Made by a program: the position numbers and the translations under genes. Under the pieces are notes generated by a model, which was not told the DNA's origin, ran no database searches, and saw nothing but the letters and a program-made list of their open reading frames with translations. Shown here piece after piece: positions 10,848 through 64,000 of a DNA stretch of 64,000 nucleotides (the first letter of the stretch is position 1; each line of letters begins with the position of its first letter). This DNA is from Bacillota bacterium (lineage in GTDB: Bacteria; Bacillota; Clostridia; Christensenellales; UBA1431): the NCBI GenBank assembly GCA_049324235.1, contig JBMOLJ010000017.1:45701-109700 (forward strand). The letters are read 5' to 3'.

Positions 10848-11092
10848 TATTCAAGGCGATGAAGGGGAACGGCTGCAGTGTAAAGCGCCATAGAGAGCCT
10901 GCCCGAAGGCTGAAAGGCAGGCGCGCACGGCTCCAGCTTCCCGTCCCGGAGCAAGCAGGATGGAAATGCCAGTATATCCCGCCGTATGCGCCGCGTTAAG
11001 GCGCTTATAAGAGGGTTTGCGCTTTGTGCAAACCAATTAAGGTGGTACCGCGAAACATGGCTTCGTCCTTATTAGGACGGAGCTTTCATTAT
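10848..11092 (+). promoter_or_regulatory. T-box leader (tRNA-sensing riboswitch) controlling proS
   Basis: GA/K-turn-like gcgatga and an AGAGA box lie near the 5' end. The conserved T-box sequence AAGGTGGTACCGCG is at 11039-11052. It is followed by the terminator gcttcgtcct-tatt-aggacggagc and a T-rich tail (11060-11090). I could not assign the specifier codon with confidence. Confidence 0.8.
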
Positions 11093-11115
11093 TAATGAGA
11101 CAGGAGCAAGGAATA

Positions 11116-12564
11116 ATGACAAAAGAAGAAAAACAGGGGTTCGTCACCCATATTACGCCTAAAGACGAGGACTTTTCGCAGTGGTATACGGACGTAATAC
11201 TCAAAGCCGACCTGGTGGACTATTCGGACGTGAAGGGCTGCATGGTCATCAAGCCGTACGGCTATGCCATCTGGGAAAACATACAGAAAGAGATGGACCG
11301 CCGGTTCAAGGAAACCGGGCATAAAAACGCATATTTCCCGCTGTTCATCCCGGAGAGCCTTCTGGCCAAGGAAGTGGAGCATGTGGAAGGGTTTGCCCCT
11401 GAAGTCGCATGGGTGACGCACGGCGGCAATGAGAGGCTCCAGGAAAGACTGGTCGTCCGCCCGACTTCCGAGACCATCATCTGCAGCATGTACGCCAAAT
11501 GGATACAGTCCCACCGCGACCTGCCTGTGCTCATCAACCAGTGGTGCAACGTCGTGCGCTGGGAAAAGAGCACGCGCCCCTTTTTGCGCACGTCCGAGTT
11601 TTTGTGGCAGGAGGGGCATACGGCGCATGTCGATTACGAAGACGCGCAGAAAGAGACCATCAAGATGCTTAATGTTTACGAGGAATTTGCGCGCAATGTG
11701 CTGGCAATCCCCGTCGTGACCGGCCAGAAGAGCGAAAAGGAGAAATTCGCGGGCGCGCAGTCCACGTATACGATGGAAGCGATGATGCAGGACGGGAAGG
11801 CGCTGCAGATGGGCACCTCCCACAACCTGGGCGAGCACTTTGCAAGGGTGTTCGATATCCAGTACCTCGACAAGGACGGGAAGCTTAAATACGTGAACCA
11901 AACGTCCTGGGGCACGTCCACGCGCATGATCGGCGGCCTGATCATGGTACACGGCGATGAGCGCGGGCTGGTGCTGCCGCCCAAGGTCGCGCCCATACAG
12001 GTCGTGATACTGCCCATCGCCATGCATAAGGAAGGCGTCCTGAATAAGGCGGAGGAAATCTACCAAAGCCTTGTGCAGGCCGGTCTTCGGGTAGAGCTGG
12101 ACGACCGCCAGACCCAGAGCGCGGGATGGAAATTCAACGAGTGGGAACTGAAGGGCGTTCCCGTGCGGCTGGAGATCGGCCCGAGGGATATCGCGAACAA
12201 TCAGGTGTTCGTATGCAGGCGCGATACGCTTGAAAAGACCGCGCTGCCCATGGAAGGGCTGGCCCAAAGCCTGAACGCGCTGCTTGACGACATACACGCC
12301 ACGATACTGCAAAAGGCCGCGGATATGCGCGAGGCGCGTACGTATATGGCGACCGATTTTGAGGAGTTTACCGAAGGCATCGTAGAGAAGAAGGGCTTTG
12401 TGAAGGCGATGTGGTGCGGTGAGCGCGCGTGCGAGGATGCCATCAAGGAAAAGACGGGCGCAACGACGCGCTGCATGCCGTTTGAGCAGGAAAGCCTGGG
12501 CGACGTATGCGTGCATTGCCAAAAGCCGGCCAGGGCCATGACGTACTTTGCGCGGGCCTACTGA
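11116..12564 (+). CDS. proS: Prolyl-tRNA synthetase, archaeal/eukaryote-like type
   Basis: FSQWYTDVILKADLVDYSDVKGCMVIKPYGYAIWE plus class II motifs (FRDE-like RPFLRTSEFLWQEGH, GTSHNLG). The C-terminal Zn-type domain ends in ARAY. I set the start at the ATG at 11116, after GGAGCAAGGA. Confidence 0.92.
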   Translation: MTKEEKQGFVTHITPKDEDFSQWYTDVILKADLVDYSDVKGCMVIKPYGYAIWENIQKEMDRRFKETGHKNAYFPLFIPESLLAKEVEHVEGFAPEVAWVTHGGNERLQERLVVRPTSETIICSMYAKWIQSHRDLPVLINQWCNVVRWEKSTRPFLRTSEFLWQEGHTAHVDYEDAQKETIKMLNVYEEFARNVLAIPVVTGQKSEKEKFAGAQSTYTMEAMMQDGKALQMGTSHNLGEHFARVFDIQYLDKDGKLKYVNQTSWGTSTRMIGGLIMVHGDERGLVLPPKVAPIQVVILPIAMHKEGVLNKAEEIYQSLVQAGLRVELDDRQTQSAGWKFNEWELKGVPVRLEIGPRDIANNQVFVCRRDTLEKTALPMEGLAQSLNALLDDIHATILQKAADMREARTYMATDFEEFTEGIVEKKGFVKAMWCGERACEDAIKEKTGATTRCMPFEQESLGDVCVHCQKPARAMTYFARAY

Positions 12565-12654
12565 TCCGTAAAACGTGGATTGCACACGAAGGCTTTATTA
12601 TGCTAAAATATATAAAACGGCGATGGAGTACCGCCGGAAAACCGCTATTGAGCT

Positions 12655-12690
12655 AATGACTCCTGCTATGCAGGAGTCATTCTTTTTATT
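12655..12690 (+). terminator. Intrinsic terminator after proS
   Basis: A 12-bp perfect stem aatgactcctgc-tat-gcaggagtcatt followed by cttttta. Confidence 0.8.
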
Positions 12691-12704: not shown

Positions 12705-14492
12705 ATGCTGGAGGGTACCCATGTAATTCTGGATCGGTTCTGTGAGAAGATTGCGGGCTTGATGCCGATTGCGGCGTCTTTGGACAATCAGGAGATGGCG
12801 GCTGGCCTGGAGAAGCAGCTTCAAAAGGTTCGGAACGTAGAATTCCATATCATGATCCTGGGTTTGTTCAAAAGGGGCAAGTCGACCCTGATAAACTATT
12901 TTTTGAGCGCGAAGCTTCTGCCGACGGGAGTTGTACCGGTCACGTCCGTGGCGTCATACATCCGGTTCGGCGAAATTCCGCAGGTAAAAGTAATATTCAA
13001 GGACACATCGGAAATTATGATCTCAACGGAGCAAATCGACGCGTATGCGTCCGAACGGGGAAATCCCGGCAACGAAAAGAACGTTGACCGCATCGAAATA
13101 TATTATCCGTCCGCGTTTCTGAAAAACGGCGTTGTCCTGGTGGATACGCCCGGAACCGGGTCGACAAACATCGAAAACACGAAGGAAGCCTACAGGTTCT
13201 TGCCCGAAGCCGATGCGGCGTTATTCCTGCTTTCCTCGGACGCCCCTATTTCAGAGCTGGAATTGAACTACCTGTCGGAGGTAAGGAATTATTACGAGAA
13301 AGTTTATATCCTGCAAAACAAAACGGATCATCTCGCCCATGATGAACGGGAAGAGGTCGTTGCATTCACGGAGCGTATCATAAAGCAGGCTTTCGGGGAA
13401 AAGATGCAGGTATTTCCGGTATCCGCAAAACTTGCCATGGAAGGCAGGCTTGAAGGCGATGATATAAAGATACGCGACAGCGGCATGGCGCTTTTTGAGG
13501 AGGAGCTTGAGGGCTTTCTCGTTGAGGAACGGGCTTTTTATATGCTCAGCAGCAACAAAAGAAAGATTCTGAGCATGATAAAAACACTGGAGGAGAACAT
13601 CTGCTTCCAGATCGACATGCTGCAGGCGCCGATCGGCATCGTCCAGTCAAAAGTGAAGCAGTTCGAGGAAAAGATCGTACAGATTGGCAGTTTGAAAAAG
13701 GAATGCATGGCTATTCTGGGCGTGGACCTTGATGAGGTGATGGAGGAATTCCTCATCGATATCGGCTTATTTAAGAAGGAGACCGGTGAGAGCATCAAAC
13801 GCGATCTTACGGAGTATTTCAATGAGCACAAGCACAGCGCCAAACACTCCGAGCTGAAAGAATCCCTGGAAAAGAGACTGCAGGACGGGATCAGGAAAGC
13901 GTTCAGCACATGGAACAGCATCCAGGAAGAAAAAATGAAGACCGCATTCAAAAGGGTGGCTGACAGATTTGCATCGCAGCTCAATAACGCCCAGGAACAT
14001 ATCAACGACATTACACAGGAGGTCTTCGGATTCAGACTGCTTGAAAACGTGGATACCGTGGATATTCAGGATAATAAGCTGTTTTATTTCAGATTCAGCG
14101 CAGGGAACGCGTCATTGCTTGTACCCGATATGAAGTCGCTCAAGTTCCTGCTTAACAAGGAAAAAAAGGCGGAGTTCATGCTCGAGAACGTATTGGGCCA
14201 GGTGGGCGTGGAACTGCAGAAAAACGCTGACGGCTTAAGATGGAGTTATGTCCAGAAGTTCAAAGACAGCAAGCGGATGTTTGAATCGATGTATCAGGAG
14301 AAGGCCGATGCGGTTGTTTCCACAGTCCGGAAAATGATTGCCCAGGCAGTGGAAAAACGCAACGAAGAAGAAGGCAGGGTAGAGAAGAGGGTCGAATATC
14401 TGCGGGAGACGCGGGAAAGGCTGATCCGGGAGAAACACAGCGTCGAGTCCATGGATTTATCGGACACAAAGCAGAAGGAAACCGTTAGTTAA
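12705..14492 (+). CDS. Bacterial dynamin-like GTPase (single copy)
   Basis: G1 GLFKRGKST, G3 DTPG and G4 NKTD, followed by about 350 aa of helical, Glu/Lys-rich stalk. GGGAGGGG RBS. Confidence 0.75.
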   Translation: MLEGTHVILDRFCEKIAGLMPIAASLDNQEMAAGLEKQLQKVRNVEFHIMILGLFKRGKSTLINYFLSAKLLPTGVVPVTSVASYIRFGEIPQVKVIFKDTSEIMISTEQIDAYASERGNPGNEKNVDRIEIYYPSAFLKNGVVLVDTPGTGSTNIENTKEAYRFLPEADAALFLLSSDAPISELELNYLSEVRNYYEKVYILQNKTDHLAHDEREEVVAFTERIIKQAFGEKMQVFPVSAKLAMEGRLEGDDIKIRDSGMALFEEELEGFLVEERAFYMLSSNKRKILSMIKTLEENICFQIDMLQAPIGIVQSKVKQFEEKIVQIGSLKKECMAILGVDLDEVMEEFLIDIGLFKKETGESIKRDLTEYFNEHKHSAKHSELKESLEKRLQDGIRKAFSTWNSIQEEKMKTAFKRVADRFASQLNNAQEHINDITQEVFGFRLLENVDTVDIQDNKLFYFRFSAGNASLLVPDMKSLKFLLNKEKKAEFMLENVLGQVGVELQKNADGLRWSYVQKFKDSKRMFESMYQEKADAVVSTVRKMIAQAVEKRNEEEGRVEKRVEYLRETRERLIREKHSVESMDLSDTKQKETVS

Positions 14493-44817: not shown

Positions 44818-45162
44818 TGCAGCCTGAGAGTGCAAAAACATTGCCGTCACCGGCAAGATAACACATTGTGATTAGAATCTGCATTCCTCCCCAAAATCCT
44901 CCTTGATGCATCAAATCTTTCACTTGACAGAGATCTTTCCTCAATGTTAAAATTCCTTATCTCTTTGCACTGCATGTACTACAGTACAAACTGATCAGGC
45001 GATGGGCTTATGCCGGTCCATGCAGCCGGGCCAAAAGTGGCAGCAGGTCAAATCTTACATGCCTGTGGGACAGAACAATGTTTCCGCAGGTGTTTTTTTA
45101 TCCGCGGAAACATGATAAATGCATTGCCCTAGAGCTATCATAATGAATGCCGGAGAGGCATC

Positions 45163-62012: not shown

Positions 62013-63281
62013 ATGGAGCAGGAGCCAAGAGACTTAATCAAAGAACCGTATACGGGGGGAATGACAGAAAGCCCCGGTCCGGCTACCGGTGCAAATCCCT
62101 ATCAATACAATATAAACGGCGCTTCGGGCGCCACGACTCCGCCGAAAAAAAGGAAGGGAGGGTTTATCGCGCTGGTGATTGCCTGCAGCCTCGCAACAGG
62201 AACGCTTGGCGGTGTTGCGGGTGCGCTCGTTGCAGGGCAACCTGCGCAGACGGTGCAAAGCAGCACAGCGGCAGAAAACAATACAGCATCCAATGACAGT
62301 GCGAATACCAGCCTAGAGGACTCGACGAAAACGGTTGCGGTTGGTGACGGGCAGACGCTTACAGTGGCGCAGATAACGCAGAAGGTCGGGCCGAGCGTGG
62401 TGGCCATTTCAACAAAAAGCCAGGGCGTGACCACGGGGCAGGGCGGATTCAACACCGAACAGGTCACAGGCGCGGGTTCGGGTATTATCATCAGCTCTGA
62501 CGGATATATTGTCACAAACGAGCACGTGGTTTCCGGCGCGTCCTCTATCACAGTCCGCACGCAGGACAGCAAGGAGTACACCGCAAAAGTGGTCGGGTCT
62601 GATTCGCAGACGGATATCGCGCTTTTGAAAATCGAGGCCAACGGGCTGACTGCAGCAACGCTGGGCGATTCCAGCGCGATTAAAGTGGGCGAACTCGCCG
62701 TGGCTATCGGCAATCCGCTGGGGGAACTGGCGAATACGGTGACCGTGGGTATCATCAGCGCGCTGGACAGAGATATTGATATCGACGGACAGACCATGCG
62801 CCTTTTGCAGACCGATGCCGCCATAAACCCGGGGAACTCGGGCGGCGCGCTGATAAACGCGTATGGGCAGGTAATAGGCATAAACACCGCAAAAACATCC
62901 GCTGTTGGCGTTGAGGGGCTGGGGTTCGCCATACCCATCAACGACGCAAAACCGGTCATCGAAGCGTTGAAGACCAAAGGCTATGTCTCGGGAAGGACGA
63001 AGCTGGGCATCTATACGCGCGATATCGATGAGCAGACAGCGTCGATGTATAACATGCCCCAGGGCGTTTACGTCGTATCCGTCGAGCCTTTCAGCGGGGC
63101 GGAAATTGCAGGGATCAAAGCTGGTGACGTCATTACCGGGTTTGACGGACAAACCGTTAAAACAACAGCGCAGATCAACGAAATAAAAAAGAAACACAGC
63201 GTGGGCGATACGGTGAGCTTTACGCTGGTGCGGAACGGTCAAACGATTAACGGAAGCATCAAGCTGGGCGAAGACAAATGA
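62013..63281 (+). CDS. htrA: HtrA/DegP-family trypsin-like serine protease with a PDZ domain
   Basis: Catalytic triad context VTNEHVV / DIALLKI / GNSGGALIN. An N-terminal TM anchor and a C-terminal PDZ domain (GVYVVSVEPFSGAEIAGIKAGDVI). Confidence 0.9.
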   Translation: MEQEPRDLIKEPYTGGMTESPGPATGANPYQYNINGASGATTPPKKRKGGFIALVIACSLATGTLGGVAGALVAGQPAQTVQSSTAAENNTASNDSANTSLEDSTKTVAVGDGQTLTVAQITQKVGPSVVAISTKSQGVTTGQGGFNTEQVTGAGSGIIISSDGYIVTNEHVVSGASSITVRTQDSKEYTAKVVGSDSQTDIALLKIEANGLTAATLGDSSAIKVGELAVAIGNPLGELANTVTVGIISALDRDIDIDGQTMRLLQTDAAINPGNSGGALINAYGQVIGINTAKTSAVGVEGLGFAIPINDAKPVIEALKTKGYVSGRTKLGIYTRDIDEQTASMYNMPQGVYVVSVEPFSGAEIAGIKAGDVITGFDGQTVKTTAQINEIKKKHSVGDTVSFTLVRNGQTINGSIKLGEDK

Positions 63282-63311
63282 TGTGCTCTAAATCGTTTTG
63301 CCATACATAGA

Positions 63312-63345
63312 AACGCCTCCTGCCGCCACAAGCGCAGGAGGCGTT
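63312..63345 (+). terminator. Hairpin after htrA (no clear U-tract)
   Basis: A 12-bp perfect stem aacgcctcctgc-cgccacaagc-gcaggaggcgtt. Confidence 0.5.
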
Positions 63346-63555
63346 CGGCCATTCTGAATACCTCAGGGACGATGTTGTTATCGTTTGCTTTGCACCCGGC
63401 GGCAACTCCCTGAATAGTATAAACTGTGATTGCGAATCCTATGAGGTGCAAAAGAAATGTCCTCACCTGTCAGGGAGGAATAATTTTGATGAATTGGGGC
63501 TTGTAATTCGTAAGATAAAGTGATAAACTTGAGGCAATTCTAGGAGGATGCAGTA

Positions 63556-63681
63556 ATGCTGATCGCTCTGGCCACAATGTTTTTCCTGTTTATTAGCTTT
63601 AGCTACTTTGTTAGCTACGGCTATTACTGGTTTAGCAGGAAAACATCGTTGGCTTTTAGCGGAGGATCGGCTGCACAATAG
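63556..63681 (+). CDS. Candidate 41-codon aromatic-rich leader peptide upstream of DAHP synthase
   Basis: It is not in the supplied track because it is under 60 aa. ATG lies 8 nt after AGGAGG. It translates to MLIALATMFFLFISFSYFVSYGYYWFSRKTSLAFSGGSAAQ; 12 of 41 residues are Phe/Tyr/Trp, with 11 of them in codons 9-26. Confidence 0.45.
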   Translation: MLIALATMFFLFISFSYFVSYGYYWFSRKTSLAFSGGSAAQ

Positions 63682-63701
63682 GTAAAGCTGTTTCGGATAC
63701 C

Positions 63702-63743
63702 AACCGCGAAGGCTCATCGATGTGAGACTTCGCGGTTTTTGTT
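63702..63743 (+). terminator. Intrinsic terminator (attenuator) between the leader ORF and aroF
   Basis: aaccgcgaag (63702-11) pairs with cttcgcggtt (63728-37), with an inner ctc/gag extension, followed by tttgtt. It lies 21 nt after the leader stop and 32 nt before the aroF ATG. Confidence 0.7.
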
Positions 63744-63774
63744 ATGTTTACGGAAAATAAGGAGGGAGAAAGAA

Positions 63775-64000
63775 ATGATCGTGATCATGAAGCCTGAGGC
63801 ATCGGATGAAGAGATTAAACCGATCGTGGAAGAACTGAACGATAAGGGGATGCAGGTACAAATCAACAGAGGGGTGGGATGCACGGTGCTTGGCGTATTG
63901 GGAGACACGCTTTCGATCGACAAGGAGAATATCGAGCTTCGAAAGGGTGTAGAACGCGTGATGCCGGTGCAGGAACCGTATAAGAAAGCGAACAGGAAGT
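63775..64000 (+). CDS. aroF: 3-deoxy-7-phosphoheptulonate (DAHP) synthase, type I-beta with an N-terminal ferredoxin-like regulatory domain; 3'-truncated by the window edge
   Basis: It is absent from the supplied track because the ORF is open at the window end. ATG follows GGAGGGAG. MIVIMKPEASDEEIKPIVEEL...GCTVLGVLGD...VERVMPVQEPYKKANRK parallels the Thermotoga-type DAHPS N-terminus (MIVVLKP...ERTVIGIIGD...VLKPYKLVSR, from memory). Confidence 0.75.
   Translation, partial: MIVIMKPEASDEEIKPIVEELNDKGMQVQINRGVGCTVLGVLGDTLSIDKENIELRKGVERVMPVQEPYKKANRK

Follow-up and report, generated by a model that had tools for sequence, protein, structure and literature searches.

The genes for amino acid biosynthesis in Firmicutes are usually said to be controlled by T-boxes, TRAP, or riboswitches. 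In the classical leaders of Proteobacteria (pheL-pheA, trpL-trpE, ilvL, and thrL), a short open reading frame (ORF) with its own Shine-Dalgarno (SD) sequence and start codon carries a run of codons for the end products of the pathway, and the RNA can adopt 1:2, 2:3, and 3:4 pairings ahead of an intrinsic terminator and the structural gene. Two of these, ilvL and thrL, are precedents for a single leader that senses several amino acids. Here we describe a leader that shares these characteristics, in sequence and in predicted pairings, and that lies upstream of aroF, the gene for 3-deoxy-D-arabino-heptulosonate 7-phosphate (DAHP) synthase. It is located near the end of a 64,000-nt stretch of DNA, hereafter the window, from a Bacillota bacterium of the Clostridia lineage Christensenellales UBA1431 (GenBank assembly GCA_049324235.1, contig JBMOLJ010000017.1, positions 45,701 to 109,700 of the forward strand). 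Computation and comparison indicate that the element most likely attenuates aroF transcription by a ribosome-mediated, or leader-peptide, mechanism in which codons for Phe, Tyr, and Trp are read, and that it probably acts on an aroF-aroB operon.

The window leader has no sequence relation to the classical leaders, whose Rfam families are unmatched, and its host belongs to a Clostridia lineage. It is also long, at 41 codons, and its 11 regulatory codons are distributed over 18 positions and interleaved with Ser and Gly. Furthermore, the strand designated region 2 is located inside the ORF, 17-35 nt before the stop codon, whereas region 2 of trpL follows the stop codon.

A leader in another phylum precedes the same gene. 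In the actinobacterium Corynebacterium glutamicum, a Phe-Tyr-Phe leader called aroR is found upstream of aroF, and read-through rises under Phe limitation (Neshat et al. 2014, as summarized in PMC11802643). This agrees with the original prediction for this locus, made from the window sequence alone, which had named an aroR leader before C. glutamicum aroF. By the same description, the two systems share an aromatic-codon leader peptide upstream of a DAHP synthase gene; aroR is reported to carry only the Phe-Tyr-Phe motif, and the likeness is functional.

A second candidate, uORFC-13-1, is a predicted upstream ORF with a ribosome-binding site, U runs that code for Phe, and an adjacent terminator, and it occurs only upstream of aroF (Brewer et al. 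2021, PMC8632094). Its 24 sequences, with at least one Phe codon, come from Acholeplasma and from environmental sequences of unknown organisms, and its authors proposed that it senses Phe incorporation (PMC8632094). As described in that text, it agrees with the window leader in gene association, upstream ORF, Phe codons, and terminator, and on this description it could be either a distant branch of the window leader's family or a separate element. It produced no Rfam hit in this analysis.

Elsewhere in Firmicutes, a His leader precedes hisS paralogues or hisZ in bacilli, and its authors stated in 2010 that essentially no other leader peptides were known beyond Proteobacteria and Actinobacteria (Naville and Gautheret 2010, PMC2965389). 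A Leu-rich attenuator leader of the Staphylococcus aureus ilv-leu genes is also reported (PMC5794164). These examples, like the window leader, are amino-acid-specific peptides in a phylum dominated by T-boxes, but they concern other amino acids and genes and have Bacilli as hosts. Beyond the systems above, we found no report in the searchable literature of a leader-peptide attenuator for aroF or in Clostridia, nor any on a family of aromatic leaders before aroF in Clostridia, with subscription papers lying outside the search. T-boxes themselves share with the window leader the sensing of tRNA charging and an antiterminator and terminator that compete for a common strand. However, they need no translation, and both the specifier loop and the T-box sequence are absent from the window leader.

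The original prediction had proposed that a 41-codon ORF with an AGGAGG SD, in which 11 of codons 9-26 encode Phe, Tyr, or Trp, is followed by an intrinsic terminator and then by aroF. Reading of the sequence from 63000 to 64000, together with the ORF listing, located every one of these elements where it had been placed:

63501-63529, plus strand: predicted promoter-like site, with a -35 box TTGTAA at 63501-63506, a 17-nt spacer, and an extended -10 box TGaTAAACT at 63521-63529.
63542-63547, plus strand: SD of the leader ORF, AGGAGG, 8 nt ahead of the ATG at 63556.
63556-63681, plus strand: leader ORF, 41 codons plus TAG (63679-63681), with the product MLIALATMFFLFISFSYFVSYGYYWFSRKTSLAFSGGSAAQ.
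63580-63633, plus strand: regulatory codon run, codons 9-26, with 6 Phe, 4 Tyr, and 1 Trp.
63702-63749, plus strand: intrinsic terminator, composed of a hairpin at 63702-63737 (3' arm 63723-63737) and a T tract at 63736-63749.
63760-63766, plus strand: SD of aroF, AGGAGGG, from sequence reading.
63775-64000, plus strand: 5' end of aroF, with its ATG at 63775-63777; DAHP synthase with an N-terminal ferredoxin-like domain, the gene being cut by the window end.

The SD of the leader forms a duplex of -10.2 kcal/mol with the anti-SD sequence, compared with a median of -2.2 kcal/mol at other start codons in aroF upstream regions. The aromatic residues are F9, F10, F12, F15, Y17, F18, Y21, Y23, Y24, W25, and F26. 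When the 300 nt upstream of aroF were dinucleotide-shuffled 5000 times, this density of 11 in 18 never arose, and seven in 10 arose in five of the shuffles. The whole window contains 869 ORFs of at least 20 amino acids on its two strands, and the leader ORF ranks first among them in aromatic density.

The terminator hairpin, AACCGCGAAG-G-CUCAU/CGAU/GUGAG-A-CUUCGCGGUU, has a predicted free energy (dG) of -21.4 kcal/mol and is followed by TTTTTGTTATGTTT. A simple consensus scan for terminators failed to flag the hairpin at 63702-63737 because its stem is interrupted and the scan was limited to loops of 3-8. The promoter-like site was likewise unflagged by a consensus scan (8/12 matches plus TG).

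Three stretches of the leader RNA take part in the predicted alternative folds:

63558-63592, plus strand: region 1, predicted by minimum free energy to pair with 63634-63671 in the untranslated full-length leader (anti-antiterminator).
63644-63662, plus strand: region 2, the predicted antiterminator 5' strand, inside codons 30-36.
63702-63722, plus strand: region 3, the terminator 5' arm and loop, common to the antiterminator and the terminator in folding.

The original prediction had paired 63652-63662 with 63704-63713. This pairing exists and is longer than claimed, as unbiased folding revealed it to be the core of an antiterminator formed by 63644-63662 and 63704-63722 with three helices (ACAUCG/CGAUGU, UGGCUUUU/GAAGGC-UC-A, and GCGG/CCGC). 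In modeling this structure, the transcript was ended at 63724, before the terminator 3' arm exists, and a bound ribosome was represented by keeping unpaired all bases between the start of the ORF and a point 14 nt beyond the A-site codon. With the ribosome at codons 9-24, the antiterminator module has a dG of -29.1 kcal/mol, and most bases of 63704-63722 are paired with probabilities of 0.75-1.0 (mean 0.79 over 63702-63722). Region 2 pairs with this arm in the same per-base range with the ribosome on codons 12-24. The module is weaker with the ribosome at codon 26 (-23.2 kcal/mol) and is absent in the model with the ribosome at the stop codon (dG -1.7 kcal/mol, mean probability 0.07).

In the model, then, a stalled ribosome favors the antiterminator as had been proposed. 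The companion proposal, that a ribosome at the stop codon prevents the pairing by covering 63652-63662, holds only in its first part. In the model such a ribosome does prevent the pairing, but its position is roughly 63664-63693, which falls between the two strands, and the block would presumably be steric.

The untranslated full-length leader folds more stably than shuffled sequences do (z -3.0). Its predicted structure is a long hairpin that joins region 1 to 63634-63671, along with an inner hairpin at 63594-63623 and the terminator. This additional upstream strand would give the original account the classical 1:2, 2:3, and 3:4 layout.

Two other details of the leader RNA are apparent. The string UUUAGC (Phe, then Ser AGC) occurs five times between 63594 and 63662 and recurs in the leaders of several other clades (related loci L003, L004, L013, L083, and L129). 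The AGCU cores of these strings pair to create the inner hairpin at 63594-63623, and Ser and Gly are the most frequent non-aromatic residues across the leader family described below. In addition, a second segment just past the leader stop codon, AGCUGUUUCGG at 63686-63696, is complementary by eye to 63704-63714 at 9 of 11 positions. Its pairing is minor in the modeled ensembles, with a probability of about 0.2 at a single base when the RNA is untranslated, and it would be covered by a ribosome at the leader stop codon.

The locus has the components expected of an attenuator, namely an SD and ORF before a biosynthetic gene, codons for the end products, a terminator, an in silico antiterminator that shares a strand with it, and conservation upstream of orthologous genes. 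From these elements, and from the dependence of the alternative fold on ribosome position, we infer the following mechanism. Transcription would start near 63536, and the 41-codon leader would be translated. If Phe-, Tyr-, or Trp-tRNA were scarce, the ribosome would stall in codons 9-25 and keep region 1 off region 2, which could then pair with the terminator 5' arm (63704-63722) once it is transcribed. The antiterminator would thereby block the terminator, and polymerase would read into aroF. The scheme supposes that translation keeps closely in step with transcription. If the charged tRNAs were all plentiful, the ribosome would instead pass region 2 and reach the stop codon at 63679, the antiterminator could not close, the hairpin at 63702-63737 would form, and transcription would end in the T tract. 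The ribosome would block the helix by occupying region 2 in passing and then by sitting between the two strands. Without translation, region 1 would be expected to pair first with region 2, and termination would likewise be expected.

Relatives of the locus were collected by a one-genome-per-species scan that used an alignment of aroF N-termini and yielded 80 loci. The nearest, L003, comes from a metagenome-assembled genome (MAG) of Christensenellaceae and is 76% identical over the aroF fragment. Its gene order matches that of the window (htrA-like protease, leader, aroF, aroB), and its full-length aroF product of 338 amino acids contains PF18152 and PF00793. In an alignment of the two loci, the -35 and extended -10 boxes and their spacing, the SD, and the ORF (MNIVLATMFFWFISFSFYFSYGWFNFTKFHRLLAVSRNKY) are kept, and the terminator is nearly identical. 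Codons 1-28 are read in the same frame and differ by five synonymous changes, four swaps of one aromatic residue for another (Y/F, F/Y, Y/W, and Y/F), two gains of an aromatic residue, and one loss.

Farther downstream, the antiterminator-strand bases CATCGTT and AGCGG are conserved, but their reading frames differ, being 1 and 0 in the window but 0 and 2 in L003. What is conserved in this part is therefore the RNA rather than the protein. When L003 was folded independently, the same three-helix antiterminator appeared with a stalled ribosome and none appeared with a ribosome at the stop codon. An attempt to map the window pairs onto L003 through a MAFFT alignment gave many "broken" pairs because indels were misaligned in the 3' half of the ORF, and the independent folding was used in its place.

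Several considerations weigh against attenuation by a translating ribosome. Taken alone, the match of the terminator 5' arm to the segment between the aromatic run and the stop codon is only modestly above chance: their duplex has -18.5 kcal/mol, whereas shuffled sequences average -13.5 kcal/mol (z -2.2, p 0.033). The ribosome model assumes that base pairs cannot span a bound ribosome. An untranslated transcript that ends at 63724 is predicted to rearrange partly into the antiterminator (probability 0.73), and the default-off state depends on the region 1:2 pairing forming first. In the full transcript at equilibrium, the terminator is favored in every modeled ribosome state, and therefore the switch must be kinetic. 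Classical attenuators such as the E. coli trp leader are also kinetic switches.

Further points of this kind concern the sequence and the host. One aromatic codon, Phe34, falls within region 2. Where the 3' parts of the window leader and L003 diverge, their alignment columns cannot be matched reliably, and L003 is the only close relative in the collections searched, which is too few for covariation on the window-type antiterminator. A metagenome scan for nearer relatives of the window's aroF found none above 67% identity. Finally, transcription is said to outrun translation in Bacillus subtilis, as Johnson and colleagues reportedly found in 2020. A switch timed by the ribosome would be harder to operate if similar uncoupling held here.

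The original prediction had also proposed a comparison of regions upstream of aroF in related Clostridia. The comparison bore it out: these regions carry aromatic-rich mini-ORFs with variable non-aromatic positions, followed by a terminator. Among 79 loci from Clostridia and Treponemataceae with enough upstream sequence, 55 have at least five aromatic residues per 10 codons, compared with a mean of 5.8 after dinucleotide shuffling and five among the reverse complements. The corresponding values for at least seven aromatic residues per 10 codons are 12 of 79, 0.05, and none. An SD duplex of -6 kcal/mol or better is present at 74% of leaders and 10% of other start codons, a comparison that carries some selection bias given that the best in-frame start was chosen for each leader.

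The 48 curated leaders have a median length of 32 amino acids, 26% of their residues are aromatic, and 29 of them include Phe, Tyr, and Trp. In most loci, strong terminators are located between leader and aroF, at a median of 38 nt past the leader stop. For 15 of the 48 loci, against an expectation of about 2.4, the complementarity between the segment after the aromatic codons and the terminator 5' arm reaches p<=0.05, and in many loci the partner strand for this arm begins within about 10 nt of the leader stop. The window leader is the first-seen representative of what appears to be a broad, unannotated family in Clostridia, most likely of a known attenuator type.

The peptides are clade-specific, and their non-aromatic positions vary, while the SD, ATG, and open frame are maintained across clades of unrelated nucleotide sequence:

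Christensenella: STRFFxxFGFNGFYRWxFFAC
Ventricola-like gut MAGs: FSFVRFSGYxxxGxxLAFVRA
Oscillospiraceae (Flavonifractor plautii, Intestinimonas, Pseudoflavonifractor, Lawsonibacter): SFxFSYGWARFMGAGFFGMEK
Clostridium and Terrisporobacter: KFYSFFYFMFWGFYFSAGYFFC
Treponemataceae: MNKNYFYYYYFSQ

The element is missing from some loci: aroF can be within an operon, have a different 5' untranslated region (UTR), or keep the terminator with the ORF lost. In two Oscillospiraceae MAGs (L042 and L057), the promoter and a family-typical terminator (GAAGCUCAUGG...) are kept and the leader ORF is gone, and these may be decayed or differently controlled attenuators. Three Clostridium species (L061, L077, and L082) have no aromatic leader, and their aroF 5' UTRs contain runs like UAGUAGAAUAGUAGGAUAGUAG near the SD, with a spacing unlike that of TRAP sites.

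Other loci show irregular leaders. Three Treponemataceae MAGs (L064, L065, and L070) have MNKNYFYYYYFSQ... leaders without an SD, and in L064 and L065 the leader ATG falls 6-7 nt past a TATACT box, so that these look like leaderless mRNAs. The element is also present beyond Firmicutes. In a Christensenellales MAG represented by the identical loci L002 and L016, an aromatic ORF at about 2755-2925 (MESKRRYSFFFGW...) stops at a TAG within CGCTTTAGCGGCTAT, a sequence that encodes RFSGY in another frame in sister clades. This could reflect overlapping small frames or an assembly frameshift. In L001 (ENA ERZ1761048 contig_7268), both aroF and the leader ORF appear frameshifted relative to near-identical contigs such as L086-L100, probably through an assembly error.

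The Oscillospiraceae clade is informative about pairing, in that compensatory changes are found in 10 of 18 predicted pairs, nearly all of them in the terminator stem. The conserved ORF block GAUUUAUGGGCGCC may be an antiterminator strand: 70% of cells pair, compared with 28-48% for slid controls, but only two pairs are changed on both sides. Alignment columns 44-76 of the Oscillospiraceae loci (L027-L075) contain GGCUGGRCUCGAUUUAYGGGNNCCGGCUWUUUUG within the ORF, and this block is conserved even at synonymous sites. It is nearly perfectly complementary to the invariant GCUCAUUGA of the terminator 5' arm in about half of the sequences. Aromatic codons flank it on both sides, which the simple stalling model leaves unexplained.

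Pairing with the terminator arm explains only part of the conservation of this block, and the Arg-Phe codon pair CGA-UUU is found in 24 of 25 Oscillospiraceae sequences. RF(S/Y/F) or Gly-rich motifs recur in the leaders of other clades. Because of these near-invariant and recurrent motifs, and because the N-terminal half of the window leader is conserved in frame, there is room for a peptide that is more than a passive read-out of tRNA charging. It could act in nascent-chain arrest with free aromatic amino acids as its signal, much as TnaC is an arrest peptide that senses Trp, or a released membrane micro-protein that is co-regulated with aroF. We regard such a function, layered on the attenuator, as unlikely.

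Clade-specific peptides united by their aromatic content also bear on whether the leader reads tRNA charging at all. A translated ORF could control the terminator as a general sensor of slowed translation, caused by antibiotics or stringent conditions. Indeed, any stall in codons 9-25 would give the same fold, and the architecture of a leader ORF with alternative hairpins is shared by drug-induced attenuators of Firmicutes such as the bmrCD and tylosin-resistance (yxjB) leaders. However, the controlled gene is the entry enzyme of the aromatic pathway, and richness in Phe, Tyr, and Trp is the sole property common to otherwise unrelated leaders, which makes a general sensor quite improbable.

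It is slightly less probable still that the product of the ORF is a small, hydrophobic membrane peptide that has a function of its own, either beside a terminator unrelated to translation or as a second function beside attenuation. The original prediction had offered such a peptide as its alternative. Residues 2-26 have the hydrophobicity needed for a membrane helix, and the hydrophobic half is the part conserved in frame between the window and L003. In contrast, the bases conserved toward the 3' end of the ORF fall in differing frames in these two loci, the leaders of other clades, for example MTDFSFVRFSGYTSFGHSLAVVRA and MNKNYFYYYYFSQTHTGAYL, are not membrane-like, and the ORF always precedes a terminator and aroF. 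Nor was any homologue found besides the aroF-linked copies. A word-index search with the 41-amino-acid peptide found no homologues, its exact sequence is absent from the protein collection, and Pfam and NCBIfam, including small-protein families, have no family for five representative leaders. The frame change and the non-hydrophobic leaders elsewhere thus weaken the alternative, but the N-terminal half may have a second role. By exact look-up, public data contain gene calls for several Oscillospiraceae leaders, which are unnamed or labeled "hypothetical protein."

Control by a protein, tRNA, or small ligand that binds the leader RNA (a T-box, TRAP-like site, or riboswitch), with the ORF incidental, is the usual arrangement for amino acid genes in Firmicutes. 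In Enterococcus, RNA elements that may sense aromatic compounds have been proposed ahead of aroF, and synonymous-site conservation is strong in some sister clades. Nevertheless, Rfam 15 matched nothing in 63200-64000 even at E<=10, including T-box RF00230 and the Phe, Trp, His, Leu, and Thr leaders, and nothing at gathering score in 40 related loci. The maintenance of the SD, ATG, and open frame across unrelated nucleotide sequences also argues that the ORF is not incidental, and we consider RNA-binding control as improbable as the membrane peptide.

Two specific candidates of this kind were rejected. A T-box as the aroF regulator was set aside on the lack of an RF00230 match in 63200-64000, though the same model detects a T-box at 10850. 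A TRAP-type attenuator was set aside because the array of 9-11 (G/U)AG triplets is absent from the window leader and from every related locus, none of which has a run of even four such triplets with 2-3 nt spacers.

There is next to no likelihood that the ORF arose by chance beside an ordinary terminator, or an insulator, that separates the protease gene from aroF. In favor of this reading, the htrA-like protease gene ends at 63281 and has its own hairpin at 63312-63345 without a plus-strand T tract, but the shuffle tests, the conservation in L003, and the recurrence in 55 of 79 loci contradict this explanation. The hairpin at 63312-63345 is GC-rich (aacgcctcctgc...gcaggaggcgtt) and lies 3' of the protease gene. 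Its complementary strand runs into TTTCTATGTAT, and it may be a weak or bidirectional terminator.

Elsewhere in the window, Rfam found a T-box, a NiCo riboswitch, and a fluoride riboswitch. The T-box leader (10850-11073, plus strand, 98 bits) is directly upstream of an ORF for proline--tRNA ligase, proS (11095-12564; TIGR00408, E 2e-188), and the organism therefore uses T-boxes as well as a leader peptide. The fluoride riboswitch (12610-12672, plus strand) is just before an ORF at 12705-14492, and the NiCo riboswitch is at 44981-45075 on the plus strand.

The gene downstream from the leader adds a second possible layer of control. The 75 aroF residues within the window match PF18152, the ferredoxin-like domain of DAHP synthase (E 8e-22). 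In the Thermotoga enzyme, the N-terminal ferredoxin-like domain is an allosteric sensor of Tyr and Phe. Given such a domain, aroF would be under control at two levels, its expression through the attenuator and its product through Tyr and Phe.

Entry into the shikimate pathway thus appears, in the window genome, to be under the control of an aromatic leader peptide. The same design is found in dozens of species of Christensenellales, Oscillospiraceae, Clostridium, Terrisporobacter, and Treponemataceae, none of it annotated, and annotation pipelines could now give names to these leader ORFs. Models of aromatic amino acid supply in gut anaerobes gain a regulator. Given the uncoupling said to occur in B. 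subtilis, the leader elements are also natural reporters of the timing between transcription and translation in Clostridia.

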